A DNA stretch of 64,000 nt, taken from sequence record MN342150, one strand, 5' to 3'. How positions within the stretch are numbered: the stretch's first letter is position 1; every line of letters starts with the position of its first letter. Under the pieces are notes generated by a model. It was given only the letters and a program-made list of their open reading frames with translations. It searched no databases and was not told the DNA's origin. Below are positions 8,288 to 46,153 of the stretch, piece after piece. The position numbers and the translations under genes are program-made. Source of the DNA: Escherichia phage vB_EcoM_3HA11.

Positions 8288-8356
8288 TCGACACTAAATC
8301 CTCAAGTTCGACTTTCACTTTAAATACCTTCGCATACATTGCGGAGGTATTTTCTT

Positions 8357-9151
8357 ATGGCCATTCTAAAACTTGGCAACCGAGGTTCTGAAGTCAAAGC
8401 GCTTCAACAAAGCCTCAACAAAATCGGTTTCTCCCTTACAGCCGATGGCATATTTGGTAAAGCAACAGAGAATGCTGTCAAATCCGTTCAGGCAGGTGCT
8501 GGATTGGTTATTGATGGTATTGCTGGGCCAAAGACCTTCTATGCTATCCGCAACTCTGGAGACGCTCATCAGGAACATCTGACCGAAGCGGACTTGGTTG
8601 ACGCAGCACGTGAACTTGGTGTTGAGCTGGCCAGTATGAAAGCTGTGAATCAGGTAGAATCCCGTGGCACGGGTTTTACCAAAACCGGCAAGATCAAAAC
8701 TCTGTTTGAGCGCCACATCATGTACAAAAAGGTGACGGCCAAATTCGGACAAGCAAGAGCCAATGCTCTGTACCAACTCTACCCAACATTGGTTAACCCC
8801 AATTCTGGCGGGTATATCGGCGGAGACGCGGAGTTGGAACGCCTTCAGGGTGCAATCGCCCTTGACGAGGACTGCGCTTACGAGAGTGCTTCCTACGGCC
8901 TATTCCAGATCATGGGGTTCAACTGCCAAATCTGTGGATATCCAAATGCCAAAGAGATGTTCACTGATTTCCTGACTGGTGAACGCGCTCATCTTCTGGC
9001 ATTTGTCAAGTTCATCAAGGCTGATGCCAATATGTGGAAAGCCCTGAAGAACAAGAATTGGGCCGAGTTTGCTCGTCGGTACAATGGTCCGGCATATGCG
9101 AAAAACCAGTATGATACTAAACTGGCGGCAGCATACAAGAGTTTCTGTTAA
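8357..9151 (+). CDS. endolysin: peptidoglycan-binding domain plus N-acetylmuramidase-like catalytic domain
   Basis: N-terminal repeat LQQSLNKIGF...DGIFGKATENAV / DGIAGPKTFYAI typical of PG-binding domains; C-terminal ASYGLFQIMGFN muramidase-type block; SD GGAGG before the ATG at 8357. Confidence 0.75.
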   Translation: MAILKLGNRGSEVKALQQSLNKIGFSLTADGIFGKATENAVKSVQAGAGLVIDGIAGPKTFYAIRNSGDAHQEHLTEADLVDAARELGVELASMKAVNQVESRGTGFTKTGKIKTLFERHIMYKKVTAKFGQARANALYQLYPTLVNPNSGGYIGGDAELERLQGAIALDEDCAYESASYGLFQIMGFNCQICGYPNAKEMFTDFLTGERAHLLAFVKFIKADANMWKALKNKNWAEFARRYNGPAYAKNQYDTKLAAAYKSFC

Positions 9152-18971: not shown

Positions 18972-19434
18972 TATTCAGCAGGTACAAGACGTCATCCTTC
19001 AACGCCTCCGCGCCGTGATCACAAATGAAAAGGGAGAAATTGCGCCAGGGTTTGAAGGCGCATTCGACGGTTTCGTTGCCGATGATCAGGGGAACCCCGT
19101 TGTACAAACGATCGCTGGCATGATTATGCTGAATAGCGAATTTATGGCTGATGGTAAAATCCATTATTCTCCCAATCTCAGTGTTGACGGAGAATCTTTG
19201 GCTTCCGAAGTGGTTGATTTAACGGTTGCCGTTGGTGAGTTGGGTTATGTTTTGATGGTTTGCACCGCGCATTATGTGGACGCCAACGGCCATGTGTCAT
19301 ATGGTGATGAAGCGCGGGGAATCAAACGTCATGTAGATACTGCGGCGGTTCTGCAGCAGATCCGTCAGATGCAAGACAATATGGATTCCAAACCCCGCCT
19401 GATTTTGCCAGATAGTAAAATCGTGACAAGATAA
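18949..19434 (+). CDS. hypothetical protein
   Basis: ATG at 18949 with SD GGAG; overlaps the upstream gene's end. Confidence 0.45.
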   Translation: MPNVERADIQQVQDVILQRLRAVITNEKGEIAPGFEGAFDGFVADDQGNPVVQTIAGMIMLNSEFMADGKIHYSPNLSVDGESLASEVVDLTVAVGELGYVLMVCTAHYVDANGHVSYGDEARGIKRHVDTAAVLQQIRQMQDNMDSKPRLILPDSKIVTR

Positions 19435-19471
19435 TCCGGTCTAAATACCCATAACACAATGAAACTTCGTT

Positions 19472-20083
19472 ATGGGTATTTTTATGAAATTTTGCGGAAT
19501 CGACTATTCTTATGGCTGTCCTGCCATGTGCTTCTGGGATGATAAAGATCCTTTGGATTTTGACCATCTTCATTTCTATGCGCATCATACTGTAGAAAAA
19601 CATTGTCGTCAGGTACGGCATAACATCCTCATTTTACGCCAGCCGAAATATGAATCCCCAGAAGAACGCTTCTACAATATCTCCAAATGGGCCGAAGCTG
19701 TTCTTCTAACCGAGAAGCCTGATTTCATCACCCTTGAGGGGTACGCAATGGGCAACTCGAAGAATTCCAATAACATATGCCAGACTGCTGAAAATACATC
19801 TTTATTGAAGCAAGCAATGCGCCGGAATAATATGGAATTCCAGATCGTCACTCCTTCTTTCGTTAAAAAGCATTTCTGTGGTAAAGGAAACGCCGATAAA
19901 TTGGTAATGATCGATCATTTCGAGAAGCTGTTCAACGTTAAGATGCGTGGTATAATGGACATGTTGGACGTGAAGGATCCAAAGCCTATCGATGATCTTG
20001 TAGACTCATTCGCAAACATGGTGTCTGGACCTTACTTCATAGAAAATTATCCCGATTTCAATAGAGGTGTAAGAAATGATTAA
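19472..20083 (+). CDS. RuvC-like Holliday junction resolvase (putative)
   Basis: N-terminal CGIDYS, central ITLEGY, and GKGNADK...MIDHFEK blocks resemble RuvC-fold acidic catalytic residues. Confidence 0.5.
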   Translation: MGIFMKFCGIDYSYGCPAMCFWDDKDPLDFDHLHFYAHHTVEKHCRQVRHNILILRQPKYESPEERFYNISKWAEAVLLTEKPDFITLEGYAMGNSKNSNNICQTAENTSLLKQAMRRNNMEFQIVTPSFVKKHFCGKGNADKLVMIDHFEKLFNVKMRGIMDMLDVKDPKPIDDLVDSFANMVSGPYFIENYPDFNRGVRND

Positions 20084-20372
20084 TTACTGGCTGTTGGCAG
20101 ACATACTGCTTTTCGCCTTGCTGTTGATAACGGCATTTATTTGGGTTAAGGGATTTCTGACATTCCTACACTCGTTGAGTGCCATGATATCTTTCTATGC
20201 TGTGTCCCCCCATAGTGACGTCAATGTACGAGCGGCAAATCAATCTGACATGTTGGCTGAATACGTCATGATGCGTGATAAAGCATCCAGGATCGTCCTG
20301 TTTTCTACACTGGCGGGGGCGGTTATTATATTCATACAACACGTCTTGGAGGCAACTCATGCCGTTTTATGA
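20076..20372 (+). CDS. small membrane protein (two predicted TM helices)
   Basis: Hydrophobic segments LLADILLFALLLITAFIWV and AGAVIIFI. Confidence 0.45.
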   Translation: MINYWLLADILLFALLLITAFIWVKGFLTFLHSLSAMISFYAVSPHSDVNVRAANQSDMLAEYVMMRDKASRIVLFSTLAGAVIIFIQHVLEATHAVL

Positions 20373-43052: not shown

Positions 43053-44021
43053 TTAGAAGCTGTCGCCTTCGGTATCAAAGCGGCCTTTGTGCAACGGTTC
43101 CAGTTCGATAAATGTCATATCAATCTGGGTTGACACGATGCTGTCATCTTTGTGGACAGCATATGAAGAATCCGGCGTCTCGTTGACAAACATGTTTGAC
43201 AAAACACAAGTCGATATCCGATGCAACCATTTGTTGCGTTCCCCCTGCACCATGAACGTGATGTCAAATGTGGAAGGGTGTAGATAGAATGCACTGGAAT
43301 TCTTGTTGTATTTGTATTCGGGGTACATATGCATCTTGAACAGACGAATGATTTCCCTCACCATTTTCGCCTCTTTTTGCGATCTTGGAGTGAATTTGAA
43401 TGTGAACGGGATTTCTCGGTTGCGCACCCCTTGGAAAATCATTTCCACATACGGGTTGGTCATCGTACCTGTAAACAATTCTAATGTATCATGAGCATTA
43501 ATTGTCGGCAAGAAAGGAATTGCTTCCGAAGCAGATTGGATGGCCTTTGTCGCCGCAAATCTCCCCATTTCTTTCCCAACATTCAAAGCATCCCCAAGTT
43601 TGAATTGACTCATATCTTGGGCGGCGCGTGATAAGAATTGGGCACCCATACCTGCTAATCCCAACTCGGAGCCGTTCCAGCCAACGCCATAGTTGGTTGT
43701 AATGGATTCGGGCATACACAACACGATTGATTCGTTAGAGCGGACGTGACGCGCCCAAGCATATTTGCTAATAGAACCCGATTTAGAACCATAAACCACA
43801 GGAGTCTTACCCAATGGATTTTGTATCGGATTTTCGACGGTTTGGGTTGTGGTGTCCCCATATGAAGAACCGGATATTCGGTTGATGTTGAATAGAACAT
43901 AATGGCCGAGGGTTTTACCCCCTGTTATGTCTAATGGATAGACCAATTGCTTCTGAGACTTGGCCAAGCCTTTTGTGTTCAGAACTTTGATCTTATCGAT
44001 GGTCGACTTGAAATTCGCCAT
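43053..44021 (-). CDS. baseplate/tail-tube junction protein (gp48/gp54-like, putative)
   Basis: 322 aa, first gene of the hub operon. Confidence 0.45.
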   Translation of the reverse strand: MANFKSTIDKIKVLNTKGLAKSQKQLVYPLDITGGKTLGHYVLFNINRISGSSYGDTTTQTVENPIQNPLGKTPVVYGSKSGSISKYAWARHVRSNESIVLCMPESITTNYGVGWNGSELGLAGMGAQFLSRAAQDMSQFKLGDALNVGKEMGRFAATKAIQSASEAIPFLPTINAHDTLELFTGTMTNPYVEMIFQGVRNREIPFTFKFTPRSQKEAKMVREIIRLFKMHMYPEYKYNKNSSAFYLHPSTFDITFMVQGERNKWLHRISTCVLSNMFVNETPDSSYAVHKDDSIVSTQIDMTFIELEPLHKGRFDTEGDSF

Positions 44022-44074
44022 GGTCTGAAGCCCTTTAATTAGAATAGAGTGATGACACTATTTAGGACTAGAAT

Positions 44075-44695
44075 ATGGCTATGTATTTGCAGGGGAAGTA
44101 TGTTCCCGTAAATCCCAAGAAATATAAAGGCGACGTGAACAAAATAGTATTTCGTTCTTCGCTAGAACTTGTCGCCTTTAAATTTTGTGATATGAATCCT
44201 GCTATCGTCTATTGGTCTTCAGAAGAAACTGTAATCCCTTACATATCTCCGGTTGATGGTCGCGCCCATCGTTATTTCATGGATTTGAAGGTTTGGACTC
44301 GTCGGCAGGATTCCGATGAATTACAAATTACTCTTATTGAAATAAAACCCAAAGACCAGATTAAAGAACCTCGCAAAACTAAAACGATGAAGGAATCAAC
44401 ATTCAATAATTCAATGCGCACTTGGTTGGTAAATCAGGCAAAGTGGACAGCAACTAAAGAACATTGCGCGAAGGTAGGTTGGAAATTCATTATCTGGACA
44501 GAAGAACATTTGGTGCCAGGTGAAGACCCAGAAGTTAAAAAACAATTTGCTCTTCGTTCTAAGAAAAAGCGCGAAGTCGAAATGGAAGATCGACGCCGCG
44601 CTCAAAGGATTAATGCGTTGAAAGAGCAAATGAAGAAGGAAACTGCTAATAAACAACCAACGCAATTGAAAGATGATGGTTTGTTATTACCCTGA
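44075..44695 (+). CDS. PD-(D/E)xK-like protein (possibly head-completion-type nuclease fold) with basic C-terminal tail
   Basis: YFMDLKV ... LIEIKPK resembles the D...E-x-K core. Confidence 0.4.
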   Translation: MAMYLQGKYVPVNPKKYKGDVNKIVFRSSLELVAFKFCDMNPAIVYWSSEETVIPYISPVDGRAHRYFMDLKVWTRRQDSDELQITLIEIKPKDQIKEPRKTKTMKESTFNNSMRTWLVNQAKWTATKEHCAKVGWKFIIWTEEHLVPGEDPEVKKQFALRSKKKREVEMEDRRRAQRINALKEQMKKETANKQPTQLKDDGLLLP

Positions 44696-44905
44696 TTTCC
44701 TTGGATGTCCAGGGGCAAAGCAAGTTTGTTTGTCCCTGCATATCATCCACCCATCAGCACGGGCTTGTCTAGCACAGTCTCCCCAAGATTCACCAGCATA
44801 AGACTTCATCCCACATCTGGGGTGATGCTCTTGCCAAGCCCAATCACAAGATTTGCATTCCACACATTCACAATACAAATCTATCGTGTATCCTGCGGTA
44901 ATCAT
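44687..44905 (-). CDS. small Cys-rich protein
   Basis: 9 Cys in 72 aa (CECVECKSC, CRDKQTC). Confidence 0.35.
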   Translation of the reverse strand: MITAGYTIDLYCECVECKSCDWAWQEHHPRCGMKSYAGESWGDCARQARADGWMICRDKQTCFAPGHPRKSG

Positions 44906-45313
44906 TTAATCCGCCAGGCGTTCGTAAATTTTTTGACGGAACTCATTCCCTTTTGCACAACCTGTGGCCAGCAAACGAGTACCGCCTGTCCCGATGACAC
45001 TGATAGTTGAAAATCTTAAAATACGGCCTGTAATGGACTGATCCACTTTGATGGTCTCAACTTTACCCAGGCGAAGTTCATCAGCATCACGGCGGATAAA
45101 TCCTCGTTTTACGATAACCCGTTTGTTGGTGACTGCGAATTCCGTGGTCATCACATTCAAGATAGTTGGGATCAGGAATAACAAACTGAAACCAAATGTT
45201 GGAATAATCGTTAAAGCGACGAGAACATAAATCCAGAATCCACTCCACCAAGTCGGACGAGTGAATGCAACCACATATTCATTTTCGCTCAGCATACGAT
45301 CGACGTAACGCAT
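44906..45313 (-). CDS. membrane protein with bacterial PH-like domain (YdbT/DUF304-like)
   Basis: Two N-terminal TM helices followed by a PH-like beta region. Confidence 0.45.
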   Translation of the reverse strand: MRYVDRMLSENEYVVAFTRPTWWSGFWIYVLVALTIIPTFGFSLLFLIPTILNVMTTEFAVTNKRVIVKRGFIRRDADELRLGKVETIKVDQSITGRILRFSTISVIGTGGTRLLATGCAKGNEFRQKIYERLAD

Positions 45314-45314
45314 T

Positions 45315-45836
45315 TTAATTCCTTACTTTGTCAGGATTAGATAATATTTGTTCGTATCCGACTTCTCCTTGATAGTCGAAAACATGCTGAAGAATCGCCA
45401 TATCGTCTACCATCCGATAAACTTCAATTCCAGCGTTCATCAATTTTTTGATTCCATCCATAATACGATATGGCTCACGATAATATACTTTATCGATTTT
45501 ACCGCTATCTATTATCTTTTGAGTGCAATTAGGGCAAGGACTATGTGTCACAAACATAACCAACCCTGTGAAATCATCTGCATTTTCGGGGATACGCATT
45601 AGAGCATTTTCCTCCGCATGAACAACACACGGGTTTGTAACAATTTGCCCGTGTTGCTCCATCTCACAAACATTCGGCATGCCAGGAGGCGTTCCGTTCC
45701 ATCCGATAGCCACAGGCTGATCAGTTTCAGGGTTTACGATAACACAACCGACTTGCAGACGCCGAGCATAACTGGTTACACCATATGCTGCAGCTGATCG
45801 CATATGAGCAAACATCATACGTGGTTTGATAGCCAT
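45315..45836 (-). CDS. cd: dCMP deaminase
   Basis: Zinc-binding motifs VHAEENA and SPCPNC. Confidence 0.8.
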   Translation of the reverse strand: MAIKPRMMFAHMRSAAAYGVTSYARRLQVGCVIVNPETDQPVAIGWNGTPPGMPNVCEMEQHGQIVTNPCVVHAEENALMRIPENADDFTGLVMFVTHSPCPNCTQKIIDSGKIDKVYYREPYRIMDGIKKLMNAGIEVYRMVDDMAILQHVFDYQGEVGYEQILSNPDKVRN

Positions 45837-46153
45837 TATTTTATCAGAGCCTTTTCAAGTAAAAAGATCATGTCATCCTGGTCGGCGCGGCCAAAGATCT
45901 GACCGAGGGACACCATGGAATGAACCTCTTTGACAATCAGGTCTTTGCCTGTTACACCGCTGTTGTCCAATTCGAGAATTGTAGACATGCGCTCAACCAT
46001 ATGAGGTGGATGATTGATATAACGTTGAAGATACTTTTCACGCAACGCAATTTTTTCGATAAGATCTGACATTTCTGCATTCTCTTCTGAATACAGACGT
46101 TCTTTAGATTTCAGTTCTTCGAGGCGTTCGTACATTTCTTTTAATGAAATCAT
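45836..46153 (-). CDS. hypothetical protein
   Basis: ATG at 46153 with SD GGGAGAG. Confidence 0.4.
   Translation of the reverse strand: MISLKEMYERLEELKSKERLYSEENAEMSDLIEKIALREKYLQRYINHPPHMVERMSTILELDNSGVTGKDLIVKEVHSMVSLGQIFGRADQDDMIFLLEKALIK

Follow-up and report, generated by a model that had tools for sequence, protein, structure and literature searches.

The open reading frame described here lies in a window of 64,000 nucleotides of Escherichia phage vB_EcoM_3HA11 (MN342150) and encodes a RuvC-family protein. With a probability that we put at about 80%, this protein is a late-translated resolvase that does in Vi1-like phages the job done in T4 by endonuclease VII (gp49). The frame was found exactly where the original prediction had placed it, with the same strand and length (Table 1), and it is 100% identical at the nucleotide level to F416_gp057 of phage PhiSH19 and to many other Kuttervirus genes, including that of ECML-4. 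The RefSeq name of these identical genes is "RuvC-like Holliday junction resolvase", and the same label stands in RefSeq for other Ackermannviridae and in a published gene table. The assignment was hence already known, and the RuvC-like resolvase that had been put forward is in itself an ordinary finding. A literature search returned no biochemical or genetic data on the protein or on any Ackermannviridae ortholog.

Table 1. Features of the resolvase gene and its surroundings (window positions)
Feature	Position	Strand	Remarks
CTAAATA box, candidate late promoter	19441..19447	+	T4 late consensus TATAAATA
Perfect 13-bp inverted repeat, 13-nt loop	19443..19481	+	arms 19443-19455 and 19469-19481
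ORF, 203 aa, MGIFMKF...	19472..20083	+	extent used in most Kuttervirus records
Most probable CDS, 199 aa, MKFCGIDYS...	19484..20083	+	stop TAA 20081-20083
D11 codon GAC, predicted first catalytic carboxylate	19502..19504	+	invariant; equivalent to E. coli RuvC D7
E89 codon GAG, predicted second catalytic carboxylate	19736..19738	+	invariant; equivalent to E. coli RuvC E66
K132...K143 segment (VKKHFCGKGNADK)	19865..19900	+	equivalent to E. coli RuvC K107...K118 (VKQTVVGIGSAEK)
D175-L-V-D178 codons, predicted third and fourth catalytic carboxylates	19994..20005	+	equivalent to E. coli RuvC D138/D141 (DAAD)
Predicted membrane protein, 98 aa	20076..20372	+	ATG overlaps the resolvase stop (ATGATTAA)

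Family membership, fold and catalytic residues

The protein matched PHROG 159, "RuvC-like Holliday junction resolvase", over residues 1-201 (E=1.4e-54, 186 bits) and, weakly, phrog_1770, "Holliday junction resolvase" (E=2e-5). Of the two profiles that the original prediction had named, Pfam RuvC (PF02075) was reached marginally, at 22.7 bits against a gathering cutoff of 22.2 and over residues 61-157 only, whereas Pox_A22 gave no Pfam match at E<=10, and neither did YqgF (RuvX). PF02075 was matched by 17 of 20 homologs, with a best E of 6.4e-7. A search of PDB sequences with the single ORF sequence returned noise only (E>1), so that profiles were needed. With an alignment of 20 sequences, hhalign produced a correct-looking but non-significant alignment to E. 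coli RuvC (probability 3.9%), and with an alignment of 133 relatives (25-71% identity) the probability rose to 67% (E=5e-5), a value that is still modest because the template is one sequence. The 133-sequence profile matched RuvC of Deinococcus radiodurans at 4.1e-8 and also those of Thermus thermophilus and E. coli, while 4,461 clusters at 50% identity matched the family profile at E<=1e-3. The scores stayed far below the cutoffs of the NCBIfam RuvC equivalogs NF000711 and TIGR00228 (24.5 versus 163 bits and 11.4 versus 100.65, respectively). By these profile comparisons the protein is a member of a distant phage subfamily and no ortholog of cellular RuvC.

An AlphaFold2 model of the protein (pLDDT 89.8, pTM 0.89) has an RNase H-like fold with RuvC topology. 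The 12 best matches to this model in the PDB were all bacterial RuvC chains, with E values from 2e-8 to 1e-5 (2.1e-8 for the best single match) and TM scores of 0.66-0.73 on the target, and they covered nearly the whole RuvC chain. After them came Ydc2, MOC1 and the RuvC of Lactococcus phage bIL67, and the matches in BFVD were phage RuvC-like resolvases. The mitochondrial and chloroplast RuvC-like resolvases (Ydc2/Cce1, MOC1) and poxvirus A22 belong to the same RuvC superfamily; as matches to the model, Ydc2 and MOC1 were weaker than bacterial RuvC. Two other assignments were set aside: for a TnpB/IscB-type RuvC domain there was no more than a weak match to IsrB at rank 42, and a terminase-nuclease domain did not fit the size and context of the protein.

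Only seven columns are invariant in the 133 sequences: D11, E89, K132, G139, K143, D175 and D178. E89 was aligned with the catalytic Glu of RuvC by both HMMER and hhalign, and hhalign paired DDLVD with the ADAAD of E. coli RuvC, which equates D175 and D178 with D138 and D141; both stand at the start of a helix predicted at 173-184, within KPIDDLVDSF. D11 lies outside every profile alignment, and its probable catalytic role is assigned from its lack of variation and from where it stands, at the end of predicted strand beta1 and in a GID motif that resembles the GIDPG of RuvC. The published catalytic set of E. coli RuvC consists of D7, E66, D138 and D141 (PMC3864405). The alignments thus support a predicted tetrad, D11/E89/D175/D178, that is intact, and conservation of the catalytic acids, on which the original prediction had staked itself, extends to all four. 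The basic residues of the DNA-binding cleft have counterparts as well, since hhalign paired K132 and K143 with K107 and K118 of E. coli RuvC, the lysines that contact DNA in RuvC.

All three motifs quoted in the original prediction are present, namely CGIDYS (residues 8-13), LEGY (88-91) and MIDHFEK (146-152). The first two hold D11 and E89, but the third had been misassigned as catalytic: D148 and H149 vary even in close homologs (MIAHFEK, MIARFEK, MVDYF), and the stretch aligns to the non-catalytic helix that follows the conserved Lys of RuvC. Together, the profiles, the structure model and the seven invariant residues support the prediction of an active RuvC-family nuclease.

Compared with the bacterial enzymes (E. 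coli, T. thermophilus, Pseudomonas aeruginosa and D. radiodurans; PF02075), the phage protein shares the fold, a significant profile match, the order and spacing of the D...E...DxxD tetrad and the two conserved lysines. It differs in being about 40 residues longer, with an extra predicted beta-hairpin (47-56) ahead of helix 1 and a tail at the C-terminus. The PhiSH19 annotation contains neither RuvA nor RuvB as a partner, and the identity of the phage protein to canonical RuvC is low (12-17% in structural alignments). Its substrate would probably also differ, being phage DNA with modified thymidine (PMC5889632). The RuvC of bIL67 (PDB 4KTW), which has been characterised biochemically, is likewise a phage resolvase of RuvC fold with a DEDD tetrad (D8, E71, D145 and D149; PMC3864405). 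It matched the model with E=1.7e-3 and TM 0.55/0.67, more weakly than bacterial RuvC, and its last two Asp form a DxxxD instead of the DxxD of the ORF protein.

Endonuclease VII and the junction-resolving step

The window comes from a Kuttervirus (Ackermannviridae) and not from the Straboviridae, so that the earlier description of a T4-like genome holds for T4's order, the Pantevenvirales, but not for its family. The observation that no endonuclease VII-like gene is visible in the window was confirmed, and the whole-genome check for gp49 that had been proposed with it was run on the complete genome of the close relative PhiSH19, in which no endonuclease VII is annotated. In the window and in PhiSH19, tblastn of gp49 gave a best E of 0.42 and an HMM of 88 endonuclease VII sequences a best E of 1.1, against 1.2e-88 for the T4 gp49 control; the CxxC...HxH...CxxC pattern was found only in the T4 control. 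The T4 enzyme (PF02945 and PF09124) is a zinc-binding nuclease of the His-Me finger (HNH-like) type, whereas the ORF protein is, by its model, an RNase H-like DEDD nuclease that has no sequence similarity to gp49 and lacks the Cys4 zinc site and the His-Me finger motif of PF02945 members. These sequence comparisons support a resolvase different from that of T4.

PhiSH19 encodes RecA/UvsX-like, UvsY-like, gp46/47-like, gp59-like and gp32-like proteins and a gp17-type terminase, together with T4-type late-transcription genes. T4-type recombination and late-transcription genes imply a need for a debranching enzyme and, because the recombination genes are accompanied by a gp17-type large terminase, the DNA of Vi1-like phages would be expected to form branched concatemers by analogy with T4. 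The RuvC-like enzyme would act as a homodimer, by analogy with bacterial and phage RuvC. D11, E89, D175 and D178 of each subunit would form a Mg2+ site, and at a junction with four arms or another branched structure each subunit would cut a single strand of an opposing pair. The enzyme would most likely fill the role of endonuclease VII, its proposed functional equivalent in a phage with T4-type recombination genes, by removing branches before packaging and by resolving recombination intermediates. Phage RuvC enzymes, that of bIL67 among them, have been proposed to take away branches ahead of packaging, as happens in T4 and T7 (PMC3864405).

The same genome offers another candidate for this step. 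Its other annotated nucleases are an RNase H, a GIY-YIG protein and a RecB/Cas4-type PDDEXK_1 protein; the last of these, gp111, is a PD-(D/E)XK nuclease (PF12705, E=6e-7) encoded beside a UvsW-like helicase and UvsY. The resolvase families Hjc, RecU and T7 endonuclease I have the PD-(D/E)XK fold, which is that of gp111, and the roughly half of the PhiSH19 genome that is annotated as hypothetical proteins could include a novel or very divergent resolvase. If either were the resolving enzyme, the RuvC-like protein would be redundant or specialised and no one-for-one replacement of gp49. We judge this very improbable, since PDDEXK_1 is an exonuclease family and no resolvase family, the endonuclease VII signal is absent throughout the genome, and the RuvC-like protein retains every catalytic residue under deep conservation.

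The original prediction had spoken of a swap of the junction-resolving enzyme. The part of that claim that stands is that the enzyme is a different one and that endonuclease VII is undetectable; an event and its direction are not borne out. The RuvC-like gene lies in a Kuttervirus neighbourhood of the order baseplate hub...RuvC-like...gp33-gp32, whereas T4 has nrdD-49-pin and, because it is conserved and syntenic in every Ackermannviridae genus sampled, the gene is on this comparison ancestral to the family and not a recent replacement. With two genes in unrelated neighbourhoods and an ancestral RuvC-like gene, the word swap is an overstatement.

Upstream hairpin, candidate late promoter and start codon

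A CTAAATA box and a perfect inverted repeat precede the gene (Table 1). The 5' arm of the resulting hairpin overlaps the TAAATA and its 3' arm contains GGG; as RNA, the hairpin has a dG of -15.7 kcal/mol (z=-3.8). Ten orthologous upstream regions, from six named genera and one unclassified Aglimvirinae phage, all carry the TAAATA unchanged, and the hairpin is kept in orthologs with compensatory changes. The latter result comes from folding each sequence separately, as MAFFT displaces Agtrevirus by one base within the 5' arm. The upstream regions of the Vibrio and Aeromonas phages fall out of register in the MAFFT alignment, and the conservation of the hairpin is stated for the remaining orthologs.

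According to a paper of 2011 (PMC3184105), Vi1-like phages had no identified late promoter, and no experimental mapping of one was found in the literature. A sequence that we had taken to be its consensus, 'CTAAATAcCcc', was dropped, its exact 10-mer occurring once in the window and the searchable literature holding no match. CTAAATA itself is not over-represented in the window (4 sites versus 6.4 expected), and a scan for consensus sigma-70 promoters and terminators around the gene gave nothing persuasive. As the assumed consensus was without support, the position of the sites relative to gene starts was tested instead, and here a signal was found: of the 22 CTAAATA sites in the PhiSH19 genome, 17 precede an ORF start by 12-70 nt, a placement seen for 30% of permuted 7-mers (p=6.9e-6), and the genes that follow are mostly virion genes. 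From this placement we infer that the box upstream of the resolvase gene would act as a late promoter.

The endolysin, gp5-like hub and tail-spike genes share the design in which the box lies in the 5' arm and the 3' arm reaches the ATG, and T4 gene 49 has the same upstream layout, with a hairpin that ends at the ATG and bears TAAATA in its 5' arm. A control mechanism with the promoter inside the hairpin has been described for T4 late genes (PMC2988022). With the box in the 5' arm and the 3' arm over the ribosome-binding region, the analogy suggests that the resolvase may be translated only from late transcripts. The hairpin could instead serve as an intrinsic terminator for the gene before it, which ends at 19434, with an incidental TAAATA and no T4-style translational control: the stem begins 9 nt past the upstream stop codon, and a T-rich tract (TATTTTT) comes after the stem. 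This is an unlikely reading, as the loop, at 13 nt, is long, the hairpin does not come up in the consensus terminator scan, the TAAATA stays unchanged in 10 of 10 orthologs while neighbouring stem positions covary, and the same design is found at the three phage genes and the T4 gene named above. The two roles are, moreover, compatible with each other.

The hairpin also bears on the start of the gene. Because the annotated ATG at 19472 stands inside this conserved structure, with the first four codons of the 203-aa frame in the 3' arm, translation probably begins at a second ATG, that at 19484, which lies 2 nt past the hairpin end. All six of the ten compared sequences that lie outside Kuttervirus and Taipeivirus are annotated from the equivalent of this ATG, Serratia phage 3M has ACG where the upstream ATG stands, and more distant homologs start with MK[FY]CGIDYS. 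A start at 19484 would make the first catalytic Asp residue 7, as in E. coli RuvC. The gp5-like hub gene seems to carry the same artefact of a mis-annotated start. On the downstream side, the overlapping gene for a 98-aa predicted membrane protein is likely co-transcribed with the resolvase gene. This neighbour occurs in six other genera or groups, in some of them with a membrane-protein annotation, and its belonging to the resolvase system is uncertain.

These signals also weigh on the possibility that the protein is an active RuvC-fold nuclease aimed at host forks or the host chromosome, for scavenging or shut-off, or used in some other conflict. The RuvC of bIL67 is toxic when expressed and introduces nicks at replication forks in vivo, and the authors of that study suggest degradation of the chromosome as a possible added benefit (PMC3864405); the RuvC-like family is, besides, so large and diverse that the functions of its members may differ. 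Functions directed at the host, however, tend to be early ones, whereas the signals ahead of this gene are like those of virion, endolysin and tail-spike genes. The gene also belongs to the core, in a syntenic position next to gp33 and gp32 in every genus sampled, and no second resolvase can be recognised in PhiSH19, even though recombination-dependent replication of the T4 type needs such an enzyme. A host-directed role is, in our estimate, quite improbable, and a resolvase acting in place of gp49 remains the preferred reading.

Significance for Vi1-like phages

As a discovery, the resolvase is of little importance. The analysis yields a catalytic set corrected to D11, E89, D175 and D178 in place of MIDHFEK, a probable correction of the start codon from 19472 to 19484, and a testable proposal of late translation through a late promoter and hairpin in Vi1-like phages, a group that finds wide use in biocontrol and phage engineering.

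Two further ideas follow at lower strength. Late-only translation of branch-cutting nucleases might be a selected requirement across the Pantevenvirales, with endonuclease VII and the RuvC-like enzyme placed behind the same device, since such a nuclease, if made early, would destroy the intermediates of replication and recombination; we hold this only tentatively and rather doubt it. If it were true, the CTAAATA box would define the late promoter of Vi1-like phages. More speculatively, the enzyme could be adapted to junctions in hypermodified-thymidine (5-NeOmdU) DNA. The preferred cleavage sequence of host RuvC contains TT, and the host enzyme might fail on such junctions. At the level of the family, the comparison with T4 would provide a clean case of non-orthologous enzymes at one step, a His-Me finger nuclease in T4 and an RNase H-fold nuclease in the Vi1-like phages.

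RuvC-family fold and active site

The ORF encoding the RuvC-like protein (203 aa; see the table of coordinates) competes with opposite-strand ORFs of only 59 and 99 aa, and the three strings quoted in the original prediction, CGIDYS, LEGY and MIDHFEK, are all present in it. The RuvC fold proposed there was borne out by profile searches, in which PHROG 159 ("RuvC-like Holliday junction resolvase") matched residues 1–201 with E = 1.4e-54 and Pfam RuvC (PF02075) matched residues 61–157 only, at 22.7 bits against a gathering score of 22.2. PF02075 was also matched by 17 of 20 homologs (best E = 6.4e-7). The family is large: a 20-homolog profile retrieved 4,461 clusters (50% identity) at E ≤ 1e-3 and 240 at E ≤ 1e-30 from 1.84 billion representatives. 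Among sequences of solved structures, a profile built from 133 diverse relatives reached Deinococcus radiodurans RuvC at 4.1e-8, and RuvC of T. thermophilus and E. coli were also matched. The AlphaFold2 model was confident (pLDDT 89.8, pTM 0.89), and the 12 top-ranking PDB hits from Foldseek were all bacterial RuvC chains (E 2.1e-8 to 1.1e-5; TM up to 0.73 on the target), followed by yeast Ydc2, chloroplast MOC1 and the RuvC of Lactococcus phage bIL67; the predicted viral structures matched were phage proteins called RuvC or RuvC-like resolvase. NCBIfam equivalog models for cellular RuvC scored far below cutoff (24.5 versus 163 bits); the protein represents a distant phage subfamily within the RuvC family and not an ortholog of bacterial RuvC. 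Its closest known proteins are bacterial RuvC, by fold and active site, and the phage RuvC-like resolvases of PHROG 159, with bIL67 RuvC as a phage example that has been studied. Orthologs of 260–264 aa from Serratia phage 3M (1201–1995 of its own record) and other Miltonvirus-like phages carry an extra C-terminal stretch of ~65–70 aa that the window protein lacks.

In an alignment of the 133 sequences, which are 25–71% identical to the window protein, seven columns and no others were invariant (D11, E89, K132, G139, K143, D175 and D178, counted from the annotated ATG). Alignment by hhalign with E. coli RuvC (MG1655 sequence, literature numbering) paired E89 with E66 (FITLEGY / YFAIEQV), K132 with K107 and K143 with K118 (both within VKKHFCGKGNADK / VKQTVVGIGSAEK), and D175 with D138 and D178 with D141 (PIDDLVDSFA / PQADAADALA). 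The catalytic sets described are D7/E66/D138/D141 in E. coli, D7/E70/H143/D146 in T. thermophilus and D8/E71/D145/D149 in bIL67 RuvC (PMC3864405). D11 is part of an invariant GID motif and sits where predicted strand beta1 ends on its C-terminal side; it would correspond to RuvC D7 by position and invariance, although it falls outside every statistically significant sequence alignment. The acidic residues, whose lack of conservation would have spoken against a resolvase, are thus invariant, and these data show that the fold is that of the RuvC family and that the DEDD tetrad and two conserved lysines are intact. Of the three motifs originally cited, CGIDYS (D11) and LEGY (E89) hold catalytic residues, but MIDHFEK is not catalytic: D148 and H149 vary in close homologs (MIAHFEK, MIARFEK, MIKRFEA) and the segment aligns to the helix after K118 of RuvC.

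Phage affiliation, gene neighbourhood and endonuclease VII

Megablast against 50,697 phage records matched the ORF in 174, of which 61 were at least 99% identical; nearly all were Salmonella or Escherichia phages of ~157 kb (PhiSH19, ECML-4, CBA6, SFP10, Det7-like and others), and at ~97% this group also matches the window's first 25 kb. RefSeq places PhiSH19 in Ackermannviridae, Cvivirinae, Kuttervirus, and a newer record assigns Ackermannviridae to the order Pantevenvirales. These matches indicate, by sequence, that the window belongs to a Vi1-like phage. The description "T4-like genome" therefore stands in a broad sense only: the family is Ackermannviridae, and the Vi1-like phage CBA120 has 53 homologues in common with T4, arranged in another order (PMC3184105). 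Since the identical PhiSH19 gene, F416_gp057, is named "RuvC-like Holliday junction resolvase" in RefSeq, many other phage records carry the same or an equivalent name, and a published gene table of Vi01-like phages likewise lists a RuvC-like resolvase (PMC10892097), the identification is not new. Kuttervirus-like sequence including the RuvC-like gene also occurs in OR844944.1 (38.5 kb, labelled Enterococcus phage Efm 3-10) and in one record labelled Pseudomonas phage, both likely contaminated or mislabelled entries.

By tblastn the protein was found in 399 phage records, including Ackermannviridae of Salmonella, Klebsiella, Escherichia, Dickeya, Serratia, Shigella and Erwinia and, more distantly, myophages of Vibrio, Aeromonas, Rhizobium and Agrobacterium, mostly of 140–165 kb. 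The gene order (baseplate hub on the opposite strand, two hypothetical genes, RuvC-like gene, small membrane protein with its ATG overlapping the resolvase stop, zinc-ribbon protein, gp33-like late-transcription factor, small ORF, gp32) is kept in Kuttervirus, Taipeivirus-like Klebsiella phages, Limestonevirus, Agtrevirus and Miltonvirus; Tedavirus and a Vibrio phage show a looser version of it. The context of T4 gene 49, between nrdD and pin, is unrelated. This conserved neighbourhood, set against that of T4, argues that the RuvC-like gene is an ancestral core gene of Ackermannviridae. The small ORF 3' of the resolvase gene is present in all Ackermannviridae genera examined, and several records call it a membrane protein; a coupling to a nuclease would have no obvious reason.

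Endo VII was sought with T4 gp49 (from the T4 RefSeq record) in the window and in the complete genome of its close relative PhiSH19 (four loci), where tblastn (word size 2) gave a best E of 0.42. An HMM of gp49 and 87 fairly close homologs (≥53% identity) recovered the T4 gene at 1.2e-88 and nothing better than E = 1.1 in the six-frame Kuttervirus ORF set; the Cys4/His motif pattern occurred in T4 only, and no Endo VII is annotated in the four PhiSH19 loci. Pfam scans of the other annotated PhiSH19 nucleases returned RNase H, GIY-YIG homing endonucleases and PDDEXK_1 (RecB/Cas4-type), none of a known resolvase family. These searches show Endo VII to be absent, at the sequence level, from the window, as originally noted, and from PhiSH19. 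The proposed swap of resolvases is thus right in that the enzyme differs from that of T4 and Endo VII is lacking, but no sign of in-place replacement was seen in the compared neighbourhoods, the contexts are unrelated and a direction is unreadable. In a part of PhiSH19 outside the window, genes for a UvsW-like helicase, a PD-(D/E)XK (PDDEXK_1) nuclease and a UvsY-like mediator adjoin, and the helicase gene too has a CTAAATA box in front of it. This helicase could act with the resolvase as its branch-migration partner, and the nuclease could be the only other candidate for branch processing.

Coordinates of the features discussed (window positions unless stated)
Feature	Position	Strand	Detail
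RuvC-like ORF	19472–20083	+	203 aa
CGIDYS	residues 8–13		
LEGY	residues 88–91		
MIDHFEK	residues 146–152		
CTAAATA box	19441–19447	+	in hairpin 5' arm
Perfect 13-bp inverted repeat	19443–19455 and 19469–19481		13-nt loop
Predicted membrane protein	20076–20372	+	98 aa; ATG overlaps resolvase stop (ATGATTAA)
Endolysin box-hairpin	8320–8360	+	3' arm contains GGAGG
gp5-like hub box-hairpin	17114–17070	-	first ATG in 3' arm, second 12 nt later
PhiSH19 box-hairpins	124918, 127128, 130253 (PhiSH19)	-	
PhiSH19 box-hairpin	141919 (PhiSH19)	+	
PhiSH19 helicase, nuclease, mediator	43293–46023 (PhiSH19 locus L002)		
PhiSH19 CTAAATA box, UvsW-like gene	94825 (PhiSH19)	-	
T4 gene 49 box-hairpin	8857–8905 (T4 locus)	-	hairpin ends at ATG

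Start codon, hairpin and candidate late promoter

The inverted repeat folds as RNA at -15.7 kcal/mol (z = -3.8), with the annotated ATG inside its 3' arm; another ATG in the same frame (19484, MKFCGIDYS) stands 2 nt past the stem. TAAATA, a CC/GGG core and the downstream ATG are unchanged in all ten orthologous upstream regions compared, which represent six named genera and one unclassified Aglimvirinae phage. The stems of these regions show compensatory changes (ATAAC/GTTAT to ATATC/GATAT in IME250 and CRW-SP2; CCCA/TGGG to CCCG/CGGG in 3M and Bue1), and Agtrevirus has one extra G:C pair. In 3M the stem change turns the upstream ATG into ACG, and the downstream ATG is the annotated start in six of the ten regions, namely all those outside Kuttervirus and Taipeivirus. 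From the hairpin position, the invariant downstream ATG, the ACG of 3M and these annotations, the true start is most probably 19484, giving a protein of 199 aa with its first catalytic Asp at residue 7. In the RuvC-like gene (MGIFM...), and apparently also in the gp5-like hub/lysozyme gene (MGFNM...), the annotated start lies on ATGGG in the 3' arm, and in each the second in-frame ATG, 12 nt downstream, is likelier (19484, not 19472; 17074, not 17086, on the minus strand). For PhiSH19 tail protein gp137, whose gene is arranged in this way too, the annotated start is the downstream ATG. In addition or alternatively, the hairpin of the RuvC-like gene might be a terminator of the upstream gene.

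Promoter activity and translational control are inferred here for the RuvC-like gene. An ORF of at least 60 aa starts 12–70 nt downstream of 17 of the 22 CTAAATA sites in PhiSH19, against 30% for 104 composition-matched 7-mers (binomial p = 6.9e-6). The genes that follow these sites, as placed by coordinates, include tail-tube cap, baseplate wedge, neck protein, tail sheath, prohead scaffold and three tail-spike or tail proteins, and a (C)TAAATA box stands 30–49 nt upstream of many virion-gene starts. The genome also encodes gp55-, gp33- and gp45-like late-transcription proteins. We consider (C)TAAATA a candidate late promoter of Vi1-like phages, which the 2011 CBA120 paper called not yet identified (PMC3184105). 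Some of these boxes, those of the RuvC-like, endolysin, gp5-like hub and tail-spike genes, form part of the 5' arm of a strong hairpin (AAATACCC(C)AT...ATGGG(G)TATTT), the 3' arm of which extends up to the start codon or stops just short of it.

Comparison with T4 gene 49 and proposed role

The late promoter of T4 is TATAAATA (PMC3184105). Some T4 late genes that lie within early regions are translated from late transcripts only: long early or middle RNAs form a hairpin that sequesters the RBS, and the position of the late promoter leaves the 5' arm out of late RNAs (PMC2988022, which cites, among others, Barth et al. 1988 on gene 49). Direct reading of the T4 sequence upstream of gene 49 gave AATAAATACCCTTATC-TATTT-AAGGTAAGGGTTTATTATG, with a TAAATA box likewise in the 5' arm of a hairpin. 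The two genes are unrelated, and T4 Endo VII is a functional analogue unrelated in sequence and fold to the RuvC-like protein. As the layout is a general late-gene device in T4 and Vi1-like phages, its common presence supports late expression, but not a shared origin of the two genes.

The phage has T4-type recombination and packaging genes, no Endo VII, and late-gene-like signals upstream of the RuvC-like gene. Following the RuvC literature (PMC3864405, PMC3834835), a homodimer would bind a four-way junction and make two near-simultaneous Mg2+-dependent nicks and, as phage RuvC versions tend to, would accept other branched substrates. By this analogy we give a probability of about 0.8 to a junction-nicking homodimer that clears branches which would block packaging. 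No experimental work on any Ackermannviridae resolvase was found in the literature. The resolvase annotation itself is established; the additions are modest, consisting of a corrected motif assignment, a likely start-codon error and a promoter-in-hairpin layout common with T4 gene 49.
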